DNA from: Eledone cirrhosa
Taxonomy: Eukaryota
Direction of reading: 5' to 3'
Assembly: GCA_964016885.1 (NCBI GenBank)
Contig: OZ024743.1
Span: 352,160,001 to 352,224,000 of the forward strand
DNA: 64,000 nt
Both the position numbers and the translations under genes were made by a program. Below the pieces are notes generated by a model. The model was not told the origin of the DNA. It saw only the letters and a list, made by a program, of their open reading frames with translations, and ran no database searches. Shown here piece after piece: positions 1,646 to 64,000 of the stretch; the stretch's first letter is position 1, and each line of letters starts with the position of its first letter.

Positions 1646-3262
1646 GCCGAGTACTGACTTTAGAAAGTACATTGAAAAATCTTGGAAGAGATACCTTGAC
1701 GACTGTTTCATCATCTGGACAGAATCTCTAGATACTCTGGATGAGTTCAATATCCTCCTGAATAACCTAGACTCATCTCTCCAATTCACAAAAGAGATGA
1801 GTAGGACCAAATTACCATTCCTAGATATAATGATAATCAAAAACGACACCACCATTACCACGGATATATATTATAAACACACAGACACCCATCAATATCT
1901 GAATTTTATGTCGTGCCATCCACCTCATACAAAACGCAACATCCCATACTGCCTAGCCAGAAGAATTTGTACCATTGTAGAAGATACGAATACCAAGTAC
2001 AAACGCCTAACAGAACTAAGAGAATTTTTGCTCAAACAAAAATACCCATCTCTACTTATAGAAAATGGCATACAGCGGGCTATAAAAATACCTATACAAC
2101 AACTTAGAACAACCCAAGGAAGAAGAAACCAAGAACTGGTCATACCATTTATAATGACACACAACCCATGTCACCAGAATATATTCAACACTGCCAAAGC
2201 AAACCTACCGATCATTGCTCAAAGTAATGAATTAAAAGGCTTAATCACAGATCGATCTTTGACTCTTAGTAAAAGACAGAGAAAAAATTTGAAGCAATGA
2301 TAATCGATGCGGCACATGTCAATCCAAACAGGCCGGTCAATATATGAAAACAAAAACTGGAAAAATATTCCCAAATGCAATTATGAACTGCAAAAGCAGA
2401 AATCTGCATTAAATGCCCGAATTGTGAAGAACTATATGTCGGTCAAACTGGAAATGCACTATCGGAACGTGCACGGGTACACCGTCAACAAATCAGAGAC
2501 CCAAATGTCCGTCAGATACCCCTAAGCGGCCACCTGGCAACATGTGGTCAGGGAATATTTATAATATTCCCATTCTACAAATTACACAGCCCAAGTGAAA
2601 TCAAGAGAAAAATCAAAGAAAATAATTTTATTGATAAATTCAAACCCAAGCTAAATGAACAATAATAACGCCTAGGGATATTATTTCTACTACCACTATG
2701 ACCACGACCACTAACAACAACCACAACAACAATAATAATAATAATAAAAGTGATGTTGATGGTGATGATTAATAGAAAATGCTATTTTCATCATTTCAAA
2801 AAGCAAAACAATTGATACGTTGGGTATGACTATTGGTCGTTAGCATGCTCAACCAGCCGTGACGCTTAAACCAATCAGCTGTAGTAATTCAGTGAAACTA
2901 CACACTGATTGGTCGAAATACAGTTTACAGGGCTTTGCATTCCGGGGCCACTTTTCTCTGTATAAAATGTATAAAAGGTAGTAAATTTACCCATCTCATT
3001 ACAGTTGAAAATTGCAAAATCGACTGTCACCACATATCATGAACCTGAAGATTGCGAAAGCATGAAAGTACTTGTTCAATTAACACTTAGAATTTAATAT
3101 TCTATCATACTATTTCATTATAATACCATATTATATTATATATATTTTAAAGGATTGTAAATAAAACGAGTAAATCAGACAAAGTTGGAATTCCTCTTAT
3201 TAATATAATCTTCTATACACAATCATACACACCCGTGTATATTTACCTATCTATATCTATAT
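1646..3262 (+). mobile_element. 5'-truncated Penelope-like retroelement (RT C-terminus, GIY-YIG remnant, 3' pLTR)
   Basis: ORF 1644-2300 has RYLDDCFIIW, LPFLDIMI and YYKHTDTHQYLNFMSCHP, which are PLE RT/thumb motifs. Frameshifted sequence at ~2420-2480 reads YVGQTGNALSERARVHRQ (GIY-YIG-like). The 3' end carries an HHR. Confidence 0.88.
3040..3078 (+). ncRNA. Minimal type I hammerhead ribozyme in Penelope pLTR
   Basis: TGAAC-CTGAAGA-T TGC GAAA GCA T-GAAA-GTAC-TT-GTTCA: perfect stem I, GAAA-capped stem II and palindromic stem III. Confidence 0.85.
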
Positions 3263-6470: not shown

Positions 6471-7411
<941 letters not shown>

Positions 7412-7538
7412 AAAGTTCTATTTAAATTGTTGGGATACAACAAGCAAATATTTTTATAACTGATATAAAGCACTCAACAAATAATTAGAGTAAAAATACG
7501 ATATTAACAAATGGAAACTATATTTATAAAACCATATT

Positions 7539-7603
7539 TATTTCATTATACATATTTCAAGGACACCAAGTTAAATTATGGTGTGCTTTCATCAGATAAA
7601 ATA
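7539..7603 (-). ncRNA. Type I hammerhead ribozyme
   Basis: Minus strand reads TATTTTAT-CTGATGA-AAGCACACCA..TGGTGTCCTT-GAAA-TATGTA-TA-ATGAAATA. Confidence 0.8.
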
Positions 7604-7754
7604 TAATATAGAGCAGTTTTATAAATAAATATTGACATACTCTTAAAGAATGCAACCATTATTATTGGAAGCTCCCGGATAGTGGAGTTATATCTTTAAT
7701 TATACTATTAGGTAAGTTAGTATTGGATATTTTTAAATAAGCCGTTGGGTTACG

Positions 7755-25577: not shown

Positions 25578-26092
25578 TGTAGAAGTTATATTTAACTTGT
25601 TGGGATACAACAAGCAACAAATTATTGGAGTAAAAATACAATATATTAACAAATGGAAACTATATTTATAAAACCATATCTATTTCATTATACATATTTC
25701 AGGGATATCATATTAACAATATGTTATGCCTTCCTCAGACAAAATACAATATAGACAGTTTTATAGATAAATACATTTGACATACCGTTCAACATCGACT
25801 TGTATTTGAAAAAGTTGATTTAGCAGATCAACTTTTTCAAATACAAGTCGATGTTGAACGGTATGTCAAATCTATTTATCTATAAAACTGTCTATATTGT
25901 ATTTTGTCTGAGGAAGGCATAACATATTGTTAATATGATATCCCTAAAATATGTATAATGAAATAAATATGGTTTTATAAATATAGTTTCCATTTATTTA
26001 ATATCGTAAATATACTCCAAATACTTGTTGAGTGCTTTTATATCAGTTATAAATATTTACTAGTTGTAACCCAACAATTTAAATATAACTTT

Positions 26093-27455: not shown

Positions 27456-27542
<87 letters not shown>

Positions 27543-28880
27543 ATATATACATATAAATGTATATATATATACATATACACACACACATATATATATAAGA
27601 AAATACATAAATATTATCTAATATATATTTGTGAAATGGGCGGTGGCTGAAATTCAAATGTGCACGGTTAAATGGTAGTAGACGTGGTCGGACGGACGTG
27701 AAAATTTACACACCTATATAAAAAGTACCAAGGAAGCAAATAGACGAGGTGTCAAATCTCTAACTTGAAAAATGTGGTCCCTGGGGTCCCAAAACTATCG
27801 CGTTCGGTGAGTTATTTCCCCCTGTTCTAATACTTTTGTCTAAAAAAACATATCAAAGACAACGTTATTTCGCTGTTAATAAACTTTTGGCTACTACAGT
27901 ACGTTTCATTTTCATTTTTAAAATACAATTGCTCTATATTAAATTTAAATAATTCTATAACGATCATACAGTACTGTTTTATGAAATCGATTCTGCAGTA
28001 GAATTTTACGAAATGCCAAATCGAAAAAGTAACTGTTTTCTAACAAAAGAAATAAAACCCATACATTGCGAACCCTCTGTTCTAATACTGGGGTTAGTTA
28101 TTTCCCCCTCTTCTAATAAATATCTAATGCTGACCAGGGCAATCAAAGTGTAAACTATCATACAGTACCGTTTTATGAAATCAATTCTGCAGTACCATTT
28201 TACGAAATGCCAAACCGAAAACAGTCACTGTTTTCCATCAAAAGAAATAAAACCCTTAAATTGCGAAGAAGGGAGTCATGTTCTCAAGTACGTTTTTTCA
28301 GATATCATTTTCATTTTATTTCTAATATATGTTAACCACAACTAACAGTAACTAGTATTTTTCAATTCATTGTCTTATTTAAAATAACATATCAAAGACC
28401 ACGTTATTTCGCTGTTAATAAACTTTTGGCTACTACAAGCTTCCATGGTTACGGAGAAAATCGATGAAACAGGAATTTCCCATTCAAATTGAACTGAGAG
28501 TAATCTGTGAACGCAGAAGTAAATATTTCGAGAAACGTTGCAACCAAACGAAAACAGGAAGACGATATTTTGGTTCGTGAAGACGTTCCCTGGCAAGGAA
28601 CGGGAAAAAAGCGAGGATAATACATCGTTATGTGGAGCGTGAAGAACAATTTCATACAAAGACAAGTTTATGGTATAAATGGAGTCGTTAGGCTAATATT
28701 CTATTTAAAATAACAGAATGGTTTCCAGCCCCGGATTTTAAGAATGATGTAAATAAAATTGAAAACGAAAATGACAGAGGTTATTAAAATAGTAAAAGTA
28801 AATAGTGAAGATTTAGGCCAGTACATACGTATGCCCCGACGAATATACACATACATACGCACACACAAATACACACACAC

Positions 28881-30009: not shown

Positions 30010-32553
30010 CATAGGTTCTCAACCCATTTAGACCAAACGCCCCCTTTTGTCCCTCGAAATCACGAAACGCCCCTACCCTATTTTTACATTTTTCAATATA
30101 CTACTGATTTTGATATCTGTAGATTATTAAAAAATTGATTAACAATATTCCAAAGATACCATTGCAGGCAGCTGAGAGTATAAATACATTCCTTGAAAGG
30201 AAATATATAAATTTCAAGAAAAGGAACATAAATGTTCTTTTTTATGAATAAGGACCAGTTGAATTTGTTATTTCCCACCAGGCGATACCAACTGTTTTGA
30301 AAATTTATACAAGAGCAACTCTATCCAAAGAGTGCTCTTATCTGGAAGAAAGTGGCAATTATATCATTTCAAAGCTTTCCAGTTTTCCCTTTAATGAAAC
30401 AGACAGAATAAATGTTGATATCTAACTTGATGTCCTCTCTGCTTTGTGAGCTTAGAGACCACGGAAGAGGGTTTTCATGACCACGCGGGAGGGTGTATTT
30501 ATTAGTAAATGGTAAAATATAAACAACAAATGAGTAAGTGAATTGTAGTAGATGGTTTCCAGTCCAGTCAGACTGCAACTACAAATAAAAAAAAATGTTA
30601 GTTTGCTTTGTAACAATAGCATATCTAAGTTTTCGGATAAATCAACTTACTTTAACTTTGACCTCATTTCAATGGGACCCTTGAACTTCATGGAGTCTAG
30701 CTAACTCTTTGACGTCAGTCTGGATTTTCGTAAGATTTAGCCGGAAATCTCCACATGTAATTACACTGTAGTGGTTGCGAGCCTTACTGTGCAGTCTGGA
30801 AACAGCACCAAACCTCCTCTTGACTAAGTATGAGCTTGGAAAAGGCAGAGCAAATCTCTTAGCCTCTGCATGTAGGTGTGGAAATCGACGCTGAATTTCC
30901 TCTTGCATCCAAAAAAGGGGTTCACCTATTTTGGGAAATCTAATTTTGATCATGTCATCTGCTTGAAGTTCAATGAATTCTTCCTGAAATATAACGTCCA
31001 AATCATCGACGTTAACTATAAAGGGATCTGCTACCCACATTGGGATGTCCATCGGCAAAAGGTCGACAAACCGTTCTCTCATGTTGTCTTGTAGCGCACG
31101 GTGGTGAGTGGTATAAATTTGGAGTTGATCATCGCTTACAATGTTTTGAACATTGGCGACACTAGGAAAATTATAGAATTCCCGTCAACAAAGATTCCTT
31201 TCGATGACATTCAATTTGGCCAGGAATGTTTTCAAGCAAGGTGATCTTCTCCTGCAAAGCCAAAATGACGCTGTTGCATTTGTCGAAGATGTCGGTGAGG
31301 TAGGCGCAGTTTTGCCTCATATCGAGGGTTTTCTTGTACAGTTTTGTGTTGCATCCTCGCAGAAACTCAATCATAGAGTCAAACAGTTCAAAGAAGTGAG
31401 TAAGGCACTTGCCATTTGAAAGCCACCTCACTTCATTATGAAGGAGCAACTTGACAAATTCTTCGTCATTATCTTGGCACAGTTGCCGGAAAATTCGTTC
31501 ATTGAGGGAATGCCGTTTGATAAAATTGATGACATCAATGGCCACCAGCAAGTTTCTTCACAGCCAAGTGTTGTCGATGAATGACACAATGAACAACAAA
31601 TACAGATAGACTTTCTCTCTTCAGAAGAGTGACGAAACCCTTATGTTGGCCGACCATTGCTCTTGCGTCGTCCTAGATGTATGTATTACCTGCCTGTGTG
31701 TGGTAGGTAGTCATGGATGTATGTATTACCTGTTTATGTATTGCATGTGGTCCTAGATGTATGTATTACCTGATTATGTGTTGTATGTGGTCCTAGATGT
31801 TTGTATTACCTGATTATGTGTTGTATGTGGTCCTAGATGTTTGTATTACCTGCTTATGTGTTGTATGTGGTCCTAAATGTATGTATTACTTGCCTGTGTG
31901 TTGTATATGGTTCTAGATGTGTGTGCTACCTCCTTATGTGTTGCATGTGGTCCTAGATGTGTGTATTACCGACTTATGTGTTGTATGTGGTCCTCGATGT
32001 GTATATTACCTGCTTATGTATTGTATATGGTCCTAGATGTGTGTATTATCTGATTATGTGTTGTATGTTGTCCTAGATGTGTGTGCTACCGGCTTCTGTG
32101 TTTTTTTTTGTTTTTTTTATTTGCAATATTATTTATACAATAGGTTAAAATAGATCTACATAGTGTTAACTTGTTACGGTTGAGTTAATAATTTCAAACA
32201 TGAAATACATTGTTATCAGTGAAGGAAAGGCAAGATACTAACTGGCTGCGGTTGAAGTTTCATTGATCCAGATGACTGTGGGTTTTTCCATTGTTAGGAT
32301 CTCAATTGCTGGTTAATGTCTAAACACGCCGTCAGACCATAGTTAAGCAATCTGCATGCTCATTCAAATGCATTCACTCTGGCTGTCTCAAAGACATACA
32401 AATATGGCTTATAATACTTACCAAAATAAAGAGCCTTCCAGTGCACTCCAAAGCTCAAAACGCCACCCCCCTAATGTCCCCTTGCTCCCAAACGCCCCCC
32501 CCCCTGAGTTCCGAAACGCCCCTGGGGGTGCATATACCCCCATTGAGAACCTT

Positions 32554-34139: not shown

Positions 34140-37100
34140 GACATAGAAATAATCGGGCTGGATGCCCGATCGCGCAGTTAAACCACTGGGAGTGCAGAAC
34201 CCCTAGCCCTTGTCAGAGCATTCTTCTAGGAGAAGGCATCTCAGGAAACTGGGTTAACTCTGACATAAAACCTACGGCTCAGTAGTTACCGATGATGTCG
34301 ATCTTTTCTTCTTTTCGGGTTATAGCTACTGTCGCTCAGAGAGTGGGATTGGCTCAGTGCACAGTCTTTCCTCACTTTAAAAATATTCGTCACGCACAGG
34401 CATTGCACGAGTGCATTAATAATTATTAATAGTGTATTATTATTATTATTGTTACTATTATTATTACTTTTCTTTTTCTTTTTTTCTTATTCAATGATGT
34501 TCCAGAACAATATAAAAGAGATAATTGGCAATTTAGGTTCTGGAACAAAAAAGATAATTGGCAATGAGGGCCCGCTCGTCATCGTGCCATTGTAATAGAG
34601 CCAAACAGTCTTGGCTGCTGGAGCGTACGGACGCTGCTTGACAGGAATTCCTTGGAGCGTCCTGAACGAAGGACCGCTCTTGTTGCAAAGGAGCTTCGAC
34701 GTTACGATCTTGACTTTATCTGAGACGAGGTTAGCTGGAGATGGTCATCTTACAGAATTTTGTGGAGAATATACATTCTTCTGGAAAGGAAGAGATGAAG
34801 GAACCAGAAGAGAGGCTGGGGTAGGATTTGCTGTTAAGACTGTTCTTGTGAATAAATTAGAAGAATTCCCAGTAGGGATTAGTGAGCGTCTTATGTCCAT
34901 GAGAATTCCGCTGGACAAAGGAAGATATGCGACCCCGGTGAGTGTGTATGCTCCAACTATGAATTCTGTCGATGAAGAAAAAGTGTCCTTTTACCATGCC
35001 TTGAAAGGTGTTTTAAGAAATATCCCTCAGGCAGACAAAGTCATCGTGCTTGGTGACTTTAATGCTAGAGTGGGTAGGGATTTTAACACATGGAATGTAA
35101 TCGGAAGGCATGGGGTGGGAAAGTGTAACAACAATGGTATGCTCCTCTGCAGATGTGTGAGGAGCTGGATCTGCGTGTTACCAACACCATGTTCCAACAA
35201 AAGAACAAATTCAAGACCACATGGATGCACCCTGCATCTAAGGAATGGCATCTTTTGGACTACGTCCTAGTCAGGATGCGTGACAGACAGGATGTGCAGT
35301 GTGTTCGTGCTCTTCGTGGAGCTGAGTGCTGGACGGACCACCGCCTGGTACGCGCAAAAGTGAAACTAATCACTAAACGTAAAATCCGGGCTCCTGGTGT
35401 TGCTCTGCCCAAAAGATTGAATGTTGCTCGTCGTAAGGATAAAAATGTGAAGAGGACATTGGAAGAAGAGATGCAGGCTGCAGATCTTGGTGAGGATTGG
35501 CCGATCCTTAAAAAGTCGGTTTATGATGTAGGCATGCGTGTTCTGGGATTGGTGCAGAGAAAACATCAGGACTGGTTTAATGAGAATGATGTACATATAG
35601 AAGACTTGTTGGCTGATAAGAGGCGTGTTACTTGACGGCAAAACCACAGGAGAGGAATACGTTGCATGAGGAACTCAAGGGTGTAAAATTACGTGTTAGA
35701 CGGAGTCTTTCTCAGATGAAGGATCAGTGGTGGAGTGAGAAGGCTGGTGAGATACAAACTGCGTCAGATTCCAATAACACAAAGCTGTTGTACAGTCTCT
35801 TGCGTGAGGTTTATGGACCGTCTTCTTCTCTGGTGACACCGCTTCGCAGCAAGGATAGCAAAGAACTTCTTCGTGACTCACAAGGAATTCTACGAAGGTG
35901 GCGAGAGCACTTTGATGATCTTTTGAATCAGCCGTCTGTCGTCAGTGAAGATTTCCTCAATCTCATTCCAGAAAGTCCTGTGAAAGTAACTCTCGCAGAA
36001 CCTCCGACGCTTGTGGAGGTTGCAGTGGCTATCTCGAAGCTGAACAGTGGAAGGTCTCCAGGTATGGATGGCATACATGCTGAGCTCCTACAATATGGTG
36101 GTGAGTGACTTCTGCAACATCTTCACTCTTTGTTTGGCAGGATATGGGCTAATGAATCCGTACCTGAGGACTGGAGAGATGCAGTAATGGTGGTCTTGTA
36201 CAAGGGAAAGGGTAACAGGAATGATTGTGGGAACTACAGAGGTATATCATTGCTTTCTGTCGTAGGGAAAGTTTTATGTAGGGTGCTTCTGGACCATCTG
36301 CTGACACACATTGCAGATTGTGTTCTTCCTGAAAGTCAATCTGGTTTTCGTGCTGGACGCGGCACTACTGATATTATTTTCTCAGCTAGACAGCTCCAGG
36401 AGAAGTGCATGGAATAGGGTTTGGATCTGTATCAGGTTTTTGTCGATCTGACAAAAGCTTTCGATACTGTTAACAGAGGTGCATTTTGGAAGGTTCTCCA
36501 GACACTTGGTTGCCCTGATAAGTTCCTTGCTTTAGTTAGGTCTTTCCATGACGACATGAAGGCTTGGGTTAATGTCGGAGGTAACATGTCGGAGCCTATC
36601 TCAGTAAAAAATGGAATGAAACAGGGGGATATTCCAGCACCGACCCTGTTTGCCATATAATTTGCAATGGTTTTCTGTATTGCATTCAGGAATTGCGAGC
36701 ATGGTGTTTACATCCGATATCGAACCTCAGGCAGCATATTTAACATCAGGCGCTTTGCTGCAAAGACAAAAGTATTTACATCAATCATAAGAGACCTCTT
36801 GTATGCAGATGATTGCGATCTTGTAGCGCACACAGAGAGTGATATGCAGCACATTTTGAATGCATTTTCTGACGCTTGCACTGCCCTAGGATTGACTGTC
36901 AGTCTCAAGAAAACCGTCGTCATGTACCAACCTGCCCCTGGTAAGCAGTACACTGAACCAAATATCTATGTGTATGGTAAACGACTTGGAGTGGTTGATC
37001 AATTTGTCTACCTGGCAAGCACTGTCAATCGATACGGCAACCTTGACAGTGAAATCTCCCTTAGGATTAGGAAAGCAAGTGATGCTTTCGGAAAGCTAGA

Positions 37101-41490: not shown

Positions 41491-41805
41491 TTTTCTCCCT
41501 TTCATGCTCAACTAACTTATACATATTACACTTATTCATCCACTCTACTTCTTTTCACAATATATCCTTAATTACATTACTATTGTTATATTTTTATATT
41601 TTTTAATAATACATATCAACAATTTCTTTCCATCGCACATATTATTAAACCCTTAAATATTATTCTTAATACATATTAACAATTTCTTTTCTTCGTAATA
41701 TTATTAAACCCTCCAATATACAAACCTTAATTTAACATTATTCTAAATTTTTCTCTGCGTTATATAAGGTATGTATATACGTTCAACAATCTGGCAGGAA
41801 GTTAT

Positions 41806-41848
41806 ACGTTGCTGACGATAGCTAACAAGCTTGAAACTAGTACAGCGT
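41806..41848 (+). ncRNA. Minimal type I hammerhead ribozyme (inverted unit)
   Basis: ACGTTG-CTGACGA-T AGCT AACA AGCT T-GAAA-CTAG-TA-CAGCGT. Confidence 0.88.
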
Positions 41849-42780
41849 TCCTTTGTCAGTGTTGAACAAACGAGCAACGGTGGTTGCTAGACACTACGGC
41901 TTAATACAGGATGTTTGTTTACAAACACACCGAGCGTTATAATAAATGTGCGGTGACTCCATACGTGCATATAAATATATGTGCATGTATGTATATATAT
42001 ATATACATACTACTGTACGTCTGTATACATATATGTATGTACGTGTACATACTTATATTTAAGTAAAAGCCGTACTAAGAATGGGAAATGAAATTTCGTT
42101 TCATTTTTTCCGTTTATCGTTTTCCCACACTTAGTACGGCTTTTACTTAAATATAAGTATGTACACGTACATACATATATGTATACAGAGGTACAGTAGT
42201 ATGTATATATATATATACATACATGCACACATATATATATGTACGTGTGGATTCACCGAACATTTATTATAATGCTCAGCGTGTTTGTAAACAAAGATCA
42301 CGTATTAAGCCGTAGTGTCTAGTAACCATCGTTGCTCGTTTGTTCAACACTGACAAAGTAACGCTGTACTAGTTTCAAGCTTATTAGCTAACGTCAGCAA
42401 CGTATACCCACCTGCCAGATTGTTGAACGTATATACTTACCTTATGCATATTAACGGCTGAGTAGCCCAATTTGCATATCGAGTGGGTTAATCGGCCGGG
42501 TGCACTGAAAACGATAAACGGAAAAGATGAAACGAAATTTCATTTCCCACTCTTAGTACGGCTGTTACTTAAATATAAGTATGTACAGGTACATACATAT
42601 ATGTATACAGACGTACAGTAGTATGTATATATATATACATACATGCACACATATATATATGCACGTATGGATTTACCGAACATTTATTATAATGCTCGGT
42701 GTGTTTGTAAACAAACATCCCGTATTAAGCCGTAGTGTCTAGCAACCACCGTTGCTCGTTTGTTCAACACTGACAAAGGA

Positions 42781-42823
42781 ACGCTGTACTAGTTTCAAGC
42801 TTGTTAGCTATCGTCAGCAACGT
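42781..42823 (-). ncRNA. Minimal type I hammerhead ribozyme
   Basis: Reverse complement of 41806-41848. Confidence 0.88.
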
Positions 42824-43199
42824 ATACCTTCCTATCAGATTGTTGAACGTATATATTACCGTATGCCTATTAACGGGTGAGTAGCCCAATTTGCATATCG
42901 AGTGGGTTAATCGGCCGGGTGCAACGAAAACGATAAACGGACAAAATGAAACGATATTTCATTTCCCACTCTTAGTACGGCTGTTACTTAAATATAAGAA
43001 CGTACACGTACATACATATATGTATACAGACGTACAGTAGTATGTATATATATATACATACATGCACATATATATATATTCACGTATAGATTCACCGAAC
43101 ATTTATCATAATGCTCGGTGTGTTTGTAAACAAACATCCCGTATTAAGCCGTAGTGTTTAGCAACCACCGATATTCGTTTGTTAAACACTGACAAAGGA

Positions 43200-43242
43200 A
43201 CGCTGTACTAGTTTCAAGCTTGTTAGCTATCGTCAGCAACGT
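43200..43242 (-). ncRNA. Minimal type I hammerhead ribozyme
   Basis: Reverse complement of 41806-41848. Confidence 0.88.
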
Positions 43243-43619
43243 ATACCTTCCTGCCAGATTGTTGAACGTATATATTTACCTTATGTATATTAACGGCTGA
43301 GTAGGCCAATTTGCATATCGAGTGGGTTAATCGGGCGGGTGCACCGAAAACAATAAGCGGAAAAAATGAAACGATATTTCATTTCCCACTCTTAGTACGG
43401 CTGTTACTTAAATATAAGTACGTAAACGTACATACATATATGTATACAGACGTACAGTAGTATGTATGTATATATACATACATGCACACATATATATATG
43501 CACGTATGGATTCACCGAACATTTATTATAATGCTGGGTGTGTTTGTAAACAAACATCCCGTGTTAAGCCGTAGTGTCTAGCAACCACCGTTGCTCGTTT
43601 GTTCAACACTGACAAAGGA

Positions 43620-43662
43620 ACGCTGTACTAGTTTCAAGCTTGTTAGCTATCGTCAGCAACGT
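43620..43662 (-). ncRNA. Minimal type I hammerhead ribozyme
   Basis: Reverse complement of 41806-41848. Confidence 0.88.
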
Positions 43663-44039
43663 ATACCTTCCTGCCAGATTGTTGAACGTATATACTTACC
43701 TTATGCATATTAACGGCTGAGTAGCCCCATTTGCATATCGAGTGGGTTAATCGGCCGGGTGCAGCGAAAACGATAAACGGAAAAAATGAAACGATATTTC
43801 ATTTCCTGCTCTTAGTACGGCTGTTACTTAAATATAAGTATGTACACGTACATACATATATGTATACAGACGTACAGTAGTATGTATATATATATACATA
43901 CATGCACATATATATATATGCACGTATGGATTAACCGAACATTTATCATAATGCTCGGTGTGTTTGTAAACAAACATCCCGTATTAAGCCGTAGTGTCTA
44001 GCAACCACCGTTGCTCGTTTGTTCAACACTGACAAAGGA

Positions 44040-44082
44040 ACGCTGTACTAGTTTCAAGCTTGTTAGCTATCGTCAGCAACGT
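44040..44082 (-). ncRNA. Minimal type I hammerhead ribozyme
   Basis: Reverse complement of 41806-41848. Confidence 0.88.
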
Positions 44083-47000
44083 ATACCTTCCTGCCAGATT
44101 GTTGAACGTATATACATACCTTATGTATATTAACGGCTGAGTAGGCCAATTTGCATATCGAGTGGGTTAATCAGGCGGGTGCACTGAAAACGATAAACGG
44201 AAAAAATGAAACGATATTTCATTTCCCACTCTTAGTACGGCTGCTACGCTATCTGTTCCGTCTCTATATATATCTCTTACTCTTTCGCTTTGCACTCCTC
44301 CCCTTCAATACCATCTCTCCCCCTCTCTATATATTTGTTACTCTATCGCTGCACGCTCCTCTCCTTCAATATATCAATTACACACGCTTTACACTCCTTT
44401 ATCCCCAGCGCCCCTATATATACACCCCCCCTCTCCCGCATCTATATTTTAATGTACCGTTGCACCGTGAATATATGTGTCTATATATATATACATATAT
44501 ATTGTATATACACATTCATGTATGTGTATACACACTCATGTATGTATATACACTGGTTTTATGTGTGTATTGTAAATTTGTACTGTTAAAACACGAAACT
44601 AACATTCGATTGACACTTTGATTACCTGTACAGGCAATAGTTATTAGAATGCTGTTGAAGTGTGTATATATTTTAGGGGGACATCCTGTATATACACACA
44701 TTATATATAATACAATAAACAGATAAATACACACATATATATATGAGCTTATTTAATTATAAATATTGTGAATTTTTAACTCAGTTCAATTATATATATA
44801 AATGGCTTCTACAGGACTAGAACTGTTTCATTCGAAAGAAATCATCATAATATTGAGAGGGGGGACTAGATAAAATATTTCAAATCAAATGTGTATAAGT
44901 TATAAGTTAAAATGTATAAATAGAGACGATAGTGGAGGTATATCTGTTTAGTGGAACAGTAGACGATAGAATTAAATACAGACGAGAATCTCCCTTTAAT
45001 GAAATAGCAGACGATAGAATTAAGGCAATTTAAATTTTAAGCATTTGCATTTTTGCCTTTCATCGTTACGGGGTCGATAAAATAAAGTACCAGTAATACA
45101 CTGTCACTAGACGACTTTCAAATTGAATTGTTGGTTCCATTTCTTTAGTATTTTCAATTGTAGTTATCTACTTAAAAAGCGTTACACGGTTAGAGACATA
45201 ATTCGTAAGTTATATCTTCCCTATTAAACCATTGCATTATTTCGCCTACAATAGAACAAAAATGAAATGTTCTTTAAAGAAACAGGAATATAACTTTATA
45301 AAAAAAAAAGTTGCATCCGCTTCTTTTATCATTGATAATTTTTTCGTTTTAATATTAATTGTTTTTTGTAGTTGTTTATATTAAAAATCTTACTGTAATA
45401 TTTACTTAAACGAAGGCAAACATCTAAACTTATAGATTAATCTTCTGCGAAGGACTAGATAAATCTCTCTCTCTCTCCCTCTCTCCCTCTCTCTCTCTCT
45501 CTATATATATATAAACGAAGAATGATAAAATTTCAAGCAAAGAGTTTAATTAGGTATATTTTGTAATATTATTAACTAATTATTATAATTAACGCGCATA
45601 TTTTGCTATCCTCAAACACGTTTACACATGGCATGAAATATAACTAATCCGAGATGGCTAGGTTTCATCTTCTAACTGGATATACGAAATCCATTATGTC
45701 TTGACAACAACATGAGGTAACATTATGTTATTCACAGACACACTTTGTACACTGTTCCATATCAGAATGTATTTCCTTCGTCACATTCACAAACAGTATT
45801 GAAAATATGTTCTTCGGCAAATAAAAATGTTTTGTTCATAATATTTCAACTAGCGATTGCTCTACTCCACGCACGACCACCATAAATTAATGACCAGCTC
45901 AACACAAGTATTGGTAGAGCGTCAGACACCATGCTTTGCAGTATTGTTATGGTCCTTTGCATTCTAAGTTCAAATCCTGCCGAGGTTAACTTCGACTTTC
46001 ATACTTACTAATTCGATAAAATAAAGTACCAGTAATGGACTGCCGTAATGGATTTGTGCCGAAAAATAGAAACACTATTAATGTGCAATAAAAGCAAAAT
46101 ATAACGACATTGCTCAATTATTTTATCTAATGTTGTAATAACACAAGGAAATGTTGTTTGTGTATTTTTTTTTATATTTGCTCATAGGCTTTTACAATTT
46201 CGCTCAGCCAACAACTATTAAAAAGTGAGTTGCTTAAGATAACAATTTAATCACAAATTGTTGCTATCTTTTAATACACTCCAACAAGTCATCAAATTAT
46301 GTACAATAAAAACAAATCTTATTAATTTGCTCAGGGAATATAAAGAAAATGTATATACACTGATAATTGCAATTGTATGTAAATATTTTGTTTATGTATT
46401 GTATATTTTATGTTTTCTATTATGTATAATATATTGATTTAATATTGATTGTTTTTTGTAGTTGTTTATATTAAAAGTCTGAAAATATTTTTATACATCT
46501 TACACTAATATTTATAAGATAATTTATAATAACAATTACATAATCTAATTACATTACAACGATAATTTATTATTAATATATATCCTGTTTAACTAGAGTT
46601 ATTACAAGCGTTGCCTTAAAAAAATATTAAACTAGACATGAAAAATGCGCAAGCTCAAAAGTGCCACAGAATGTTATAATAAACCTTCAAAAGTGTGGGA
46701 CTAGAGTTGTTGCTAAAAAATATTGTAATCATTATATATCGTACATTCTGTGGCATCCTTTATAAAAATAGCTTAAACCAACGAAGCCTTTATTTTTACG
46801 CTATTTCACTTAGTTAATTCTTAGAGTGTAACATATAAAAATAAATACATCTATGTTTAATGTAATAACAGCTATAAATAATTACGTAATATTATTATCA
46901 TATACTCATAGTAACAAAATAATTGTGTTGAAACTTAATATGATGCTTATATGAACGATCAAATCTATAATGATAATTTCTTAAATATACTAATAGTAAA

Positions 47001-52210: not shown

Positions 52211-52893
52211 TGTAATAAACAACATAAGGCAATTATTTCATTTACCAGTGGTTTCTTGAAAGCAAACAAATTTTGCTTTCAATTATCAGAATGAAAAAAT
52301 CCTGGTGTATTTATTGACATTAGATTTTAAAAACAAATATATAATCTATATGAAAGTGAGGCTGGAAAAGGAAGAAGGAAAGGAAAAATAAACACACATG
52401 CACACACACACGCAATTACATACACACACATATATACATACACATATATATACATATATATATATATATGCATACATACACATATACATACACGTACAAA
52501 TACACATACATATACATATACATACATACACACACACATATATATCAACATATCTATACATAGATACACACAAATACACAAGCACAGACACATGTATATA
52601 TTTCTCTCTAAGGCGGGTAAAATTCCCGAGATCCATGGACGAGTTCTCTTCAGCGGTCTCTGTCCATCATTATCGCTGCCATGTCCTGCGTCTCCACCAG
52701 ACCAGTGTCTGTCCTTAGGGCATCAACATACGTTAACCTTGGTCTTCCTCTTCTAGTGTGTCCATGTAGGGGCATATATATATATATATGTGTAGAAGTT
52801 ATATTTAACTTGTTGGGATACAACAAGCAACAAATTATTGGAGTAAAAATACAATATATTAACAAATGGAAACTATATTTATAAAACCATATT

Positions 52894-52959
52894 TATTTCA
52901 TTATACATATTTCAGGGATATCATATTAACAATATGTTATGCCTTCCTCAGACAAAATA
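52894..52959 (-). ncRNA. Type I hammerhead ribozyme (duplicate of 25681-25746)
   Basis: Same motif; the mutated mirror copy lies at 53113-53178. Confidence 0.78.
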
Positions 52960-53532
52960 CAATATAGACAGTTTTATAGATAAATAGATTTGACATACCG
53001 TTCAACATCGACTTGTATTTGAAAAAGTTGATTTAGCAGATCAACTTTTTCAAATACAAGTCGATGTTGAACGGTATGTCAAATCTATTTATCTATAAAA
53101 CTGTCTATATTGTATTTTGTCTGAGGAAGGCATAACATATTGTTAATATGATATCCCTAAAATATGTATAATGAAATAAATATGGTTTTATAAATATAGT
53201 TTCCATTTATTTAATATCGTAAATATACTCCAAATACTTGTTGAGTGCTTTTATATCAGTTATAAATATTTACTAGTTGTAACCCAACAATTTAAATATA
53301 ACTTTCCATATATATATATATATATATATATGTAGATAAATCTACCAAGAGTTTACGGTAGTGTCCAATCCGTATGAAGAACTCAATGTAATCCGGATAT
53401 CATGGAAAGAAGAGATGCAATGAAAAATCACTTTCGGTGAAAGATAAACGGAATACAGAGTCAAGATAAAATATAAAAAAAATAATGAATAAAACAATGA
53501 AACAGTTCCTTATATTAAACAAAAAAAGTTCA

Positions 53533-53839
53533 TTATTTAACGATCGTTTCTGGGATATATATGTGTTAGAATTGGCATGTATATTTAACAGATCTATGTA
53601 CAAAATTATACAAAATTATACAAACTATCAAAATTAAATATACATACCAACTCATATATATGCCGTCTTCAGAAATAAAATTATAATAATGATTATTTCT
53701 GAAGACGGCATATATATGAGTTGGTATGTATATTTAATTTTGATAGTTTGTATAATTTTGTATAATTTTGTACATAGATCTGTTAAATATACATGCCAAT
53801 TCTAACACATATATATCCCAGAAACGATCGTTAAATAAT
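53533..53839. ncRNA. Back-to-back hammerhead pair at 53533-53678 (-) and 53692-53839 (+), duplicate of 26356-26662
   Basis: Same motifs. Confidence 0.78.
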
Positions 53840-53896
53840 GAACTTTTTTTGTTTAATATAAGGAACTGTTTCATTGTTTTATTCATTATTTTTTAA

Positions 53897-54016
<120 letters not shown>

Positions 54017-54674: not shown

Positions 54675-54745
<71 letters not shown>

Positions 54746-55041
54746 GAAACAAAATGAAAACGAAATTTCATTTCTCACTCTTAGTATGGCACTTACTTAA
54801 ATGTAAGTATGCATGTATACGTACATACATATATGTATACAGACGTACAGTAGCATGCACATATATATATATATATACATATATATATACATATGCATAC
54901 AGGTACACATACATATATGCACGTATCAGTTTAGCGGCGCTAACATCGCTTTGTTCGTTTGTAAACAAACTGAACAGCCTGAATTTATGCCATACGGTGT
55001 TAAGGCAACCACGTCACCTTTTTGTTCAACACTGACACAGG

Positions 55042-55086
55042 AACGATGTACTAGTTTCAAGCTTGTTAGCTATCATCAGCACCGTT
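55042..55086 (-). ncRNA. Minimal type I hammerhead ribozyme
   Basis: Minus strand reads AACGGTG-CTGATGA-T AGCT AACA AGCT T-GAAA-CTAG-TA-CATCGTT. Confidence 0.9.
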
Positions 55087-55507
55087 TACCCATCTGCCAG
55101 ATAGTTGAACGTTCGAAAGTATATACTTTCCTTATGAAAATTAACGGCTGAGCAGCCTAATTTGCATATTGAGTGAGTTAAATCGGTCAGGCATACCGAA
55201 AACGATAAATTGAAACAAAATGAAAACGAAATTTCATTTCTCACTCTTAGTATGGCACTTACTTAAATGTAAGTATGCATGTATACGTACATACATATAT
55301 GTATACAGACGTACAGTAGCATGCACATATATATATATATATACATATATATATACATATGCATACAGGTACACATACATATATGCACGTATCAGTTTAG
55401 CGGCGCTAACGTCGCTTTGTTCGTTTGTAAACAAACTGAACAGCCTGAATTTATGCCATACGGTGTTAAGGCAACCACGTCACCTTTTTGTTCAACACTG
55501 ACACAGG

Positions 55508-55552
55508 AACGATGTACTAGTTTCAAGCTTGTTAGCTATCATCAGCACCGTT
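55508..55552 (-). ncRNA. Minimal type I hammerhead ribozyme
   Basis: Identical to 55042-55086. Confidence 0.9.
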
Positions 55553-55973
55553 TACCCATCTGCCAGATAGTTGAACGTTCGAAAGTATATACTTTCCTTA
55601 TGAAAATTAACGGCTGAGCAGCCTAATTTGCATATTGAGTGAGTTAAATCGGTCAGGCATACCGAAAACGATAAATTGAAACAAAATGAAAACGAAATTT
55701 CATTTCTCACTCTTAGTATGGCACTTACTTAAATGTAAGTATGCATGTATACGTACATACATATATGTATACAGACGTACAGTAGCATGCACATATATAT
55801 ATATATATACATATATATATACATATGCATACAGGTACACATACATATATGCACGTATCAGTTTAGCGGCGCTAACGTCGCTTTGTTCGTTTGTAAACAA
55901 ACTGAACAGCCTGAATTTATGCCATACGGTGTTAAGGCAACCACGTCACCTTTTTGTTCAACACTGACACAGG

Positions 55974-56018
55974 AACGATGTACTAGTTTCAAGCTTGTTA
56001 GCTATCATCAGCACCGTT
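55974..56018 (-). ncRNA. Minimal type I hammerhead ribozyme
   Basis: Identical to 55042-55086. Confidence 0.9.
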
Positions 56019-56453
56019 TACCCATCTGCCAGATAGTTGAACGTTCGAAAGTATATACTTTCCTTATGAAAATTAACGGCTGAGCAGCCTAATTTGCATA
56101 TTGAGTGAGTTAAATCGGTCAGGCATACCGAAAACGATAAATTGAAACAAAATGAAAACGAAATTTCATTTCTCACTCTTAGTATGGCACTTACTTAAAT
56201 GTAAGTATGCATGTATACGTACATACATATATGTATACAGACGTACAGTAGCATGCACATATATATATATATATACATTCAGGCTGTTCAGTTTGTTTAC
56301 AAACGAACAAAGCGACGTTAGCGCCGCTAAACTGATACGTGCATATATGTATGTGTACCTGTATGCATATGTATATATATATGTATATATATATATATAT
56401 GTGCATGCTACTGTACGTCTGTATACATATATGTATGTACGTATACATGCATA

Positions 56454-56502
<49 letters not shown>

Positions 56503-62208: not shown

Positions 62209-64000
62209 GACATAGAAATAATCGGGCTGGATGCCCGATCGCGCAGTTAAACCACTGGGAGTGCAGAACCCCTAGCCCTTGTCAGAGCATTCTTCTAGGA
62301 GAAGGCATCTCAGGAAACTGGGTTAACTCTGACATAAAACCTACGGCTCAGTAGTTACCGATGATGTCGATCTTTTCTTCTTTTCGGGTTATAGCTACTG
62401 TCGCTCAGAGAGTGGGATTGGCTCAGTGCACAGTCTTTCCTCACTTTAAAAATATTCGTCACGCACAGGCATTGCACGAGTGCATTAATAATTATTAATA
62501 GTGTATTATTATTATTATTGTTACTATTATTATTACTTTTCTTTTTCTTTTTTTTCTTATTCAATGATGTTCCAGAACAATATAAAAGAGATAATTGGCA
62601 ATTTAGGTTCTGGAACAAAAAAGATAATTGGCAATGAGGGCCCGCTCGTCATCGTGCCATTGTAATAGAGCCAAACAAGGCATTTAGTCTTGGCTGCTGG
62701 AGCGTACGGACGCTGCTTGACAGGAATTCCTTGGAGCGTCCTGAACGAAGGACCGCTCTTGTTGCAAAGGAGCTTCGACGTTACGATCTTGACTTTATCT
62801 GAGACGAGGTTAGCTGGAGATGGTCATCTTACAGAATTTTGTGGAGAATATACATTCTTCTGGAAAGGAAGAGATGAAGGAACCAGAAGAGAGGCTGGGG
62901 TAGGATTTGCTGTTAAGACTGTTCTTGTGAATAAATTAGAAGAATTCCCAGTAGGGATTAGTGAGCGTCTTATGTCCATGAGAATTCCGCTGGACAAAGG
63001 AAGATATGCGACCCCGGTGAGTGTGTATGCTCCAACTATGAATTCTGTCGATGAAGAAAAAGTGTCCTTTTACCATGCCTTGAAAGGTGTTTTAAGAAAT
63101 ATCCCTCAGGCAGACAAAGTCATCGTGCTTGGTGACTTTAATGCTAGAGTGGGTAGGGATTTTAACACATGGAATGTAATCGGAAGGCATGGGGTGGGAA
63201 AGTGTAACAACAATGGTATGCTCCTCTGCAGATGTGTGAGGAGCTGGATCTGCGTGTTACCAACACCATGTTCCAACAAAAGAACAAATTCAAGACCACA
63301 TGGATGCACCCTGCATCTAAGGAATGGCATCTTTTGGACTACGTCCTAGTCAGGATGCGTGACAGACAGGATGTGCAGTGTGTTCGTGCTCTTCGTGGAG
63401 CTGAGTGCTGGACGGACCACCGCCTGGTACGCGCAAAAGTGAAACTAATCACTAAACGTAAAATCCGGGCTCCTGGTGTTGCTCTGCCCAAAAGATTGAA
63501 TGTTGCTCGTCGTAAGGATAAAAATGTGAAGAGGACATTGGAAGAAGAGATGCAGGCTGCAGATCTTGGTGAGGATTGGCCGATCCTTAAAAAGTCGGTT
63601 TATGATGTAGGCATGCGTGTTCTGGGATTGGTGCAGAGAAAACATCAGGACTGGTTTAATGAGAATGATGTACATATAGAAGACTTGTTGGCTGATAAGA
63701 GGTGTGTTACTTGACGGCAAAACCACAGGAGAGGAATACGTTGCATGAGGAACTCAAGGGTGTAAAATTACGTGTTAGACGGAGTCTTTCTCAGATGAAG
63801 GATCAGTGGTGGAGTGAGAAGGCTGGTGAGATACAAACTGCGTCAGATTCCAATAACACAAAGCTGTTGTACAGTCTCTTGCGTGAGGTTTATGGACCGT
63901 CTTCTTCTCTGGTGACACCGCTTCGCAGCAAGGATAGCAAAGAACTTCTTCGTGACTCACAAGGAATTCTACGAAGGTGGCGAGAGCACTTTGATGATCT
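62209..64000 (+). mobile_element. RTE LINE 5' half (duplicate of 34140-35921)
   Basis: Nearly identical ORF fragments with shared frameshifts. Confidence 0.92.

Follow-up and report, generated by a model that had tools for sequence, protein, structure and literature searches.

The window analysed here, a 64,000-nt stretch of the Eledone cirrhosa genome, holds two tandem arrays of short units that each carry a type I hammerhead ribozyme motif, together with inverted arms, the target tract of one insertion and the corresponding empty site:

27459..27597: empty site, where the first copy of a 27-kb duplication has the corresponding (TA)n tract but lacks the element
41764..42124, plus strand: inverted 420-type arm with one hammerhead (core from 41812), joined 3'-to-3' to the 420-bp array
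42121..44247, minus strand: 420-bp array of 5 units, with 15-27 differences between units, four intact hammerhead cores and one with A9 changed
43620..43662, minus strand: 420-type hammerhead taken for comparison, U-G pair at 43659/43623
54678..54742: (TA)n target tract to the left of the 466 insertion
54742..56278, minus strand: 466-bp array of 3.3 units with three hammerheads, its 3' end the fixed end A, running into (TA)n
56273..56457, plus strand: inverted second arm, joined 5'-to-5' to the 466-bp array and stopping at the fixed end B in (TA)n

Part of a 27-kb tandem segmental duplication, with three or more copies that are about 99% identical (17352-44248, 44249-71904, which extends beyond the window, and the next from 71904), lies in the window; the 420-bp array sits at the duplication unit boundary and the 466-bp array occurs in copies 2 and 3 only. 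The two full units of the 466-bp array are identical to each other, and its further hammerheads lie on the minus strand at 55508-55552 and 55974-56018. The motif recurs five times in the 420-bp array, with an inverted sixth copy, and the 3'-to-3' joint of its inverted arm (41764-42124) is the reverse of the usual layout and is probably a secondary rearrangement. The duplication also contains a GC-richer coding-like stretch resembling a LINE fragment (34600-35921 and 62686-64000) and a 40-bp minisatellite (31670-32102). A different type I hammerhead at 3033-3080 on the plus strand is the same as one found downstream of reverse transcriptase (RT) plus GIY-YIG frames at five other loci (L190, L194, L195, L199 and L206) and is read as what is left of a pLTR from an autonomous Penelope-like family. 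At 7344-7640, 25615-26030, 52828-53243 and 53466-53905, fold-back repeats combine hammerhead-like core strands with a long helix II; they are possibly further Penelope-type families, perhaps scrambled-hammerhead relatives.

A type I hammerhead with a one-pair helix III

The hammerhead of the 466-bp unit and the structures around it all lie on the minus strand:

55042..55086: type I hammerhead of the 466-bp unit, assigned from sequence, with self-cleavage predicted
55086-55080 paired with 55048-55042: helix I
55079-55073: core CUGAUGA
55071-55060: helix II
55058-55055 and 55054-55051: GAAA strand and palindromic loop CUAG
between 55049 and 55048: predicted cut
55024..55110: predicted extension of helix I by about 16 pairs, interrupted by internal loops and a conserved UA bulge, which closes the unit into a rod (fold z, pair counts)
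55120..55167: octamer-like motif (55167-55160) and TATA-like motif (55125-55120) upstream of the hammerhead (sequence; exact matches to a 30-nt block)
55250..55462: long-range 8-bp helix between unit positions about 53-60 (near 55458) and 258-265 (near 55253)

From 55086 to 55042 the order is helix I 5' strand, CUGAUGA, U AGCU AACA AGCU U, GAAA CUAG UA and helix I 3' strand, and the core letters C3 U4 G5 A6 N7 G8 A9, G12 A13 A14, the A15.1-U16.1 pair and H17 are all present, with H17 being A here and U in an older subfamily. Helix I has six or more pairs and helix II has four, and 97-99.5% of their cells are paired across 56 distinct rows of the alignment. The base of helix II is a U.U mismatch (10.1-11.1), and what had been called stem III is a single A-U pair closed by the palindromic loop CUAG. 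Given this one-pair helix III and palindromic loop, a double hammerhead is predicted: the ACUAGU palindrome could form helix III in a dimer, and the computed dimer fold reaches -59.6 kcal/mol compared with -42.8 kcal/mol for two singles, an advantage of about 17 kcal/mol. The 96-nt region folds with z of -3.7 and -3.5 on the ribozyme strand versus -1.0 and -1.3 on the opposite strand. Whole units folded as circles give z of -8.6 and -6.5, and the opposite strand of the circular unit reaches a similar z owing to its palindromic TA tracts. We take the octamer-like and TATA-like motifs at 55120..55167 to be a possible internal promoter.

Hammerhead variants with a minimal helix III score low in Rfam. 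Nothing in Rfam matched the hammerhead region at gathering score, and the best sub-threshold match was Hammerhead_HH9 (RF02275; E=0.043, 18.5 bits against a gathering score of 52), to which the core, helix I and its conserved UA bulge align, whereas helix III is nearly absent from the Eledone motif; the bulge may make a tertiary contact with loop II.

An abundant, young family of dispersed tandem units

A 31-nt core pattern has 24,001 exact matches in the 3.0-Gb genome and none in a reversed control, and the motif therefore exceeds chance by far; leaving helix II free gives 28,412 matches genome-wide, and the 30-nt block upstream of the hammerhead gives 19,307 exact matches, all of these numbers being counts of pattern matches. 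The units are short, tandem and of low GC content (0.36), are dispersed in many copies, carry a type I hammerhead each, and contain only short TA-derived frames, none common to the 466 and 420 units. Contigs from four sequencing runs of unspecified kind contain the family with the same variable sites. The family is young, with rare changes at 1-2% per site, and a profile search for distant relatives over 0.96 Mb returned one weak match.

For variation we aligned 160 copies of the hammerhead region from 85 regions, all within the first 37 Mb of one contig; 98 of these copies, in 69 regions, were chosen by the upstream block, a motif outside the ribozyme, so their choice carries no selection bias on the ribozyme. 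The tree holds 86 of the 160 copies, a copy being omitted if more than 15% of it was masked or if it shared locus and pair state with another. The tests took columns to be independent, and the tree is blurred by recombination between subfamilies; chimeric copies switch subfamily at many places. Covariation was assessed by pair counts, tree counts and permutation tests, and in the pair counts two positions that pair only in some subfamilies were treated as internal loops.

The third pair of helix I changed once on both strands

Over the 42-nt motif the compared 420 and 466 hammerheads differ at three letters, N7 and the two members of the third helix I pair. The sequence-only reading had described both changes correctly: the core reads CUGAUGA in the 466 unit (N7 at 55075) and CUGACGA in the 420 unit (N7 at 43652), and the third pair is G-U in the 466 unit (55082/55046) and U-G in the 420 unit (43659/43623). 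Its statement that stems II and III are identical is right in that the motif differs nowhere else, but stem III amounts to one pair, and the seventh position, just beyond the six helix I pairs, is A-U in the 466 unit and U.U in the 420 unit. It had also confined the differences to tolerated positions, which is true between the compared units but not of one of the five in-array 420 hammerheads (about 42367-42397), where A9 has become U, so the copies are not all intact. The monomers it called clearly diverged do differ at 59 of 368 aligned columns outside the motif, but the other 309 are identical (84%), which makes the 420 and 466 units subfamilies of one family. Within this pair of units the hammerhead does not stand out: 3 of its 42 positions differ, compared with 59 of the 368 beyond it (p=0.17), equal conservation is reached by 45 of 327 windows of 42 columns taken outside the motif, and the longest identical run, 35 nt, lies outside the ribozyme. 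The expected contrast in divergence inside and outside the hammerhead is thus not significant in the two-unit comparison.

Among the 56 distinct rows, 1 of 28 pairs in the hammerhead-region helices changes on both sides, and an R-scape-like test would therefore have almost no power. That pair is the third of helix I, with states U-G (27 rows), G-U (17), A-U (9), C-G (1) and unpaired (2), while the common one-sided helix changes (C-G/U-G, G-U/A-U and A-U/G-U) all retain pairing. On a tree built without the third-pair columns, the copies with the 3' change to G form a single clade of 36, apart from one stray copy, and A-U to G-U arises twice among the 86 copies. The swap is thus real and structure-preserving, and it is a single inherited event; linkage alone makes diagnostic sites covary. 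As an argument for selection or for replication through RNA it is weak, because the two-unit comparison is not significant and the tree places the swap once.

Mismatched third pairs also occur. On one background genome-wide, with the A-U and G-U classes outside the count, we found 5,281 U-G, 210 U.U, 60 G.G and 77 A.G matches, and the mismatches exceed what point mutation would roughly predict by a factor of 2-5. On the tree, three U.U copies branch close to the base of the U-G clade. A clean U.U intermediate clade was not established, as the sampled mismatch loci (20 U.U, 10 G.G and 10 A.G) lie on mixed backgrounds, and mutation and recombination therefore both contribute. One insertion (L144) has two arms with reciprocal mismatches, U.U and G.G, which is what a template of a U-G unit and a G-U unit would give.

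Subfamilies keep the core and the whole RNA fold

Across the 69 loci chosen by the upstream block, none of the 15 columns of the core plus CUAG is variable between subfamilies, compared with 39 of 115 elsewhere (p=0.005), a depletion that supports selection on the ribozyme. In a stricter set without the most diverged stretch the core remains at 0 of 15 versus 19 of 83 (p=0.04), with p=0.09 for the whole hammerhead. Rare post-insertion changes do reach the core (14 in the 69 loci), and tests of shared against rare changes give p=0.04-0.14 for the core. On the tree, internal versus terminal changes number 1/14 in the core and 127/241 elsewhere (p=0.025), and helices I and II together show no significant deficit of shared relative to private changes (p=0.24). 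In an older subfamily, numbering 814 copies, the only changes are at 10.1, 11.1 and H17 (A to U). As a control, 8 of 45 units of a long satellite-like array have a broken core. We conclude with moderate confidence that the hammerhead core is under selection in source elements.

More convincing compensatory changes are found beyond the hammerhead. Two pairs of the long-range helix have changed on both sides, C-G/U-A (94 and 10 regions) and U-A/A-U (77 and 18 regions), and a hairpin outside the hammerhead forms an A-U, G-U, G-C series. When the fold of one unit was given the substitutions of the other, 6 pairs were broken versus 16.7 for random placement (0 of 5,000 draws as low), and the reciprocal test gave 10 versus 17.2 (P=0.016), this test excluding the TA-rich part. 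On the opposite strand it was weaker (P=0.11 and 0.08), and an excess over chance of changed pairs that stay paired reached only P=0.07-0.10 on the sense strand. Selection thus acts on the whole RNA fold, and since helices outside the ribozyme are constrained too, catalysis is not its sole target. The larger alignment accordingly bears out part of what the sequence-only reading anticipated: the core is depleted of subfamily-level change at 69 loci, in favour of selection on the ribozyme, but the covariation amounts to one two-sided pair of 28 and one event, and the constraint extends beyond the ribozyme.

Insertion ends point to passage through RNA

We aligned the ends of 156 of the 160 copies; 42 ran on or off, leaving 114 terminating arms. 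Of these, 95 stop at one of two sites, A and B, about 57 nt apart, and 83 of the 95 run into (TA)n. All 18 two-armed insertions with both ends classed combine A and B (hand count), as does the array in the window. Arm 5' ends are scattered: only 2 of 228 fall at the cut site, where about 4 are expected, which rules out the cut site as a hot spot of 5' ends, and in 226 of 228 arms the RT read through it. The template was therefore an uncut multimer or a ligated circle. About 11 unselected 5' ends cluster at about -5 to +2 of the first core base, a cluster that selection bias could have produced; promoter dependence was rejected as its cause, as the position is the same in both subfamily types and does not shift with the TATA motif. 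On the ribozyme strand A>G changes outnumber T>C (44 versus 21, p=0.025 in one of six tests), a weak hint of change at an RNA stage.

The insertions combine a partial tandem, an inverted 5'-truncated arm, a tail at one end and a microsatellite target, the signature that Craig et al. 2021 (PMC8557442) set out in their account of Penelope-like elements (PLEs), with a one-sided tail. The likeness extends to Neptune/Nematis-type PLEs, which share the (TA)n target, internal RT start and dimer-type hammerhead, and the Poseidon RT, as characterised by Frangieh et al. 2024 (PMC11167929), starts internally and nicks both strands of AT-rich DNA. Unlike the PLEs of these accounts, the Eledone element has no ORF and its tail is about 57 nt rather than 30-40. 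The genome encodes RT plus GIY-YIG in intact frames, 1025 and 932 aa long, with the Cys-rich linker of Neptune/Nematis type, as compared with sequence in PMC8557442. No sequence-sharing autonomous partner of the Eledone element turned up among 50 loci: none of its unit sequence was shared with an autonomous element in 50 of the 150 GIY-YIG places listed (10,596 candidates), and three GIY-YIG loci held family arrays at about chance density.

Fixed ends, back-to-back arms and the empty site show passage through RNA better than the swap does. The claim that the element replicates through RNA therefore stands as retrotransposition, with ends, arms and empty site as its evidence; it does not stand as viroid-like RNA-to-RNA copying, nor does the swap imply it. 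The conclusion of the sequence-only reading was probably right and its argument insufficient.

Among six arrays that contain at least three full units, two show an alternating ABAB pattern. At L217:820-5017 and L119:2084-3768 the alternating units are 420 and 422 bp, with 13-16 differences between A and B units and 0-5 between like units, and the L217 array ends cleanly at A and B in (TA)n. Such arrays fit a dimer template and also fit later DNA-level doubling. Satellite-like arrays of more than 20 units with higher-order repeats and shared core-breaking changes occur at L215-L216, L218 and L219, and the 45-unit array apparently grew at the DNA level.

Discussion

The family is a non-LTR retrozyme, a known class, and the finding is an ordinary one. 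Metazoan non-LTR retrozymes are described from coral, mussel and axolotl (Cervera and de la Pena 2020, PMC7229834; Li et al. 2026, 10.64898/2026.07.22.740005), and the Eledone family resembles them, as presented there, in its tandem non-coding low-GC units, one type I hammerhead in each, and tens of thousands of copies; its one-pair helix III with a palindromic tetraloop is that of HHR_Amex1 and its U.U at the base of helix II that of HHR_Amex2. Compensatory variation in such hammerheads has already been reported, "covariations and compensatory changes" in PLE hammerhead families having been noted in the text of Cervera and de la Pena 2014 (PMC4209133). The Eledone units are longer (420-500 nt, compared with the 170-400 nt RNAs reported in 2020 in PMC7229834), and, as non-LTR retrozymes, they would be expressed as linear and circular unit-length RNA. 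Fixed A and B ends are not part of the descriptions of that class consulted here. A literature search for hammerheads or retrozymes in octopus, or for Penelope-like non-autonomous tandem elements, returned no cephalopod study; supplements may list cephalopod retrozymes.

Our preferred reading, at a probability of about 0.78, is that both arrays are subfamilies of an abundant non-LTR retrozyme with predicted double-hammerhead self-cleavage, likely copied into (TA)n in trans by a Penelope-type RT/endonuclease. A tandem transcript would fold so that the two ends of each unit pair in the extended helix I and neighbouring ACUAGU palindromes build helix III, and the double hammerhead would then cleave to release unit-length RNA, likely ligated to circles. 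For metazoan type I motifs, excision of unit-length RNA by a double hammerhead is described in PMC4209133; of the predicted Xenopus retrozyme dimers in the account of Li et al. (10.64898/2026.07.22.740005), only 1 of 9 cleaved in vitro. Priming by the RT would use both target strands, at two sites next to hairpins, and synthesis would continue across the junction. New subfamilies would be founded only by source elements with an intact core and fold, so that differences between subfamilies would preserve structure. Inserted copies decay neutrally.

Movement through RNA does not by itself make cleavage the selected function, and a published suggestion is that hammerheads may simply parasitise PLEs. 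What is selected could instead be the promoter and the fold or sequence seen by a Penelope protein, with the hammerhead carried along or protein-assisted and its cleavage unneeded. Constraint reaching from the extended helix to the promoter-like block and remote helices would fit, as would read-through of the cut site in nearly every arm, and a weak enzyme is suggested by the U.U mismatch under helix II and by the single pair of helix III; in the Poseidon system, hammerhead cleavage is given as dispensable for insertion in vitro (PMC11167929). Against this, all 11 unpaired letters of the core are fixed and the variation at N7, loop II, 10.1/11.1 and H17 is just what catalysis allows, and DNA-amplified units lose the core freely, and we consider this account distinctly improbable.

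The remaining accounts question the route itself. A young satellite spread at the DNA level, its conservation due to recent ancestry and linkage only, would agree with the low rate of rare changes, with the expectation that any two diagnostic sites covary in a clonal family, and with the long arrays that do grow in DNA. It explains neither the scattered short insertions, whose 3' ends are fixed and 5' ends variable and whose arms pair A with B, nor the empty site in the duplicate, nor the strand bias of fold and wobble pairs; the end analysis has already largely refuted it, and it is very unlikely. Replication from RNA to RNA as in viroids or satellite RNAs, with only secondary writing into DNA, draws on the highly paired circular unit with its hammerhead, but the hammerhead occurs on one polarity only, the opposite strand owes its similar z to palindromic TA tracts, and the variation is organised as retroelement subfamilies, which leaves this account the least credible of those considered.

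The family has its value as population-level evidence that the ribozyme core and the whole-RNA fold matter to source elements, a matter on which the cited papers do not decide, and it offers a young, intact substrate/enzyme pair. A bolder extension, tentative and on balance doubtful, is that the 24,000 and more copies form a mutational record of a cleave-ligate-copy cycle, in which a Penelope RT would copy ligated circles from two fixed starts, ABAB arrays would come from heterodimeric circles, ribozyme junctions would form across subfamilies, and U-G would have arisen through a mobile U.U intermediate. If true, the proposed life cycle of retrozymes would become directly testable.
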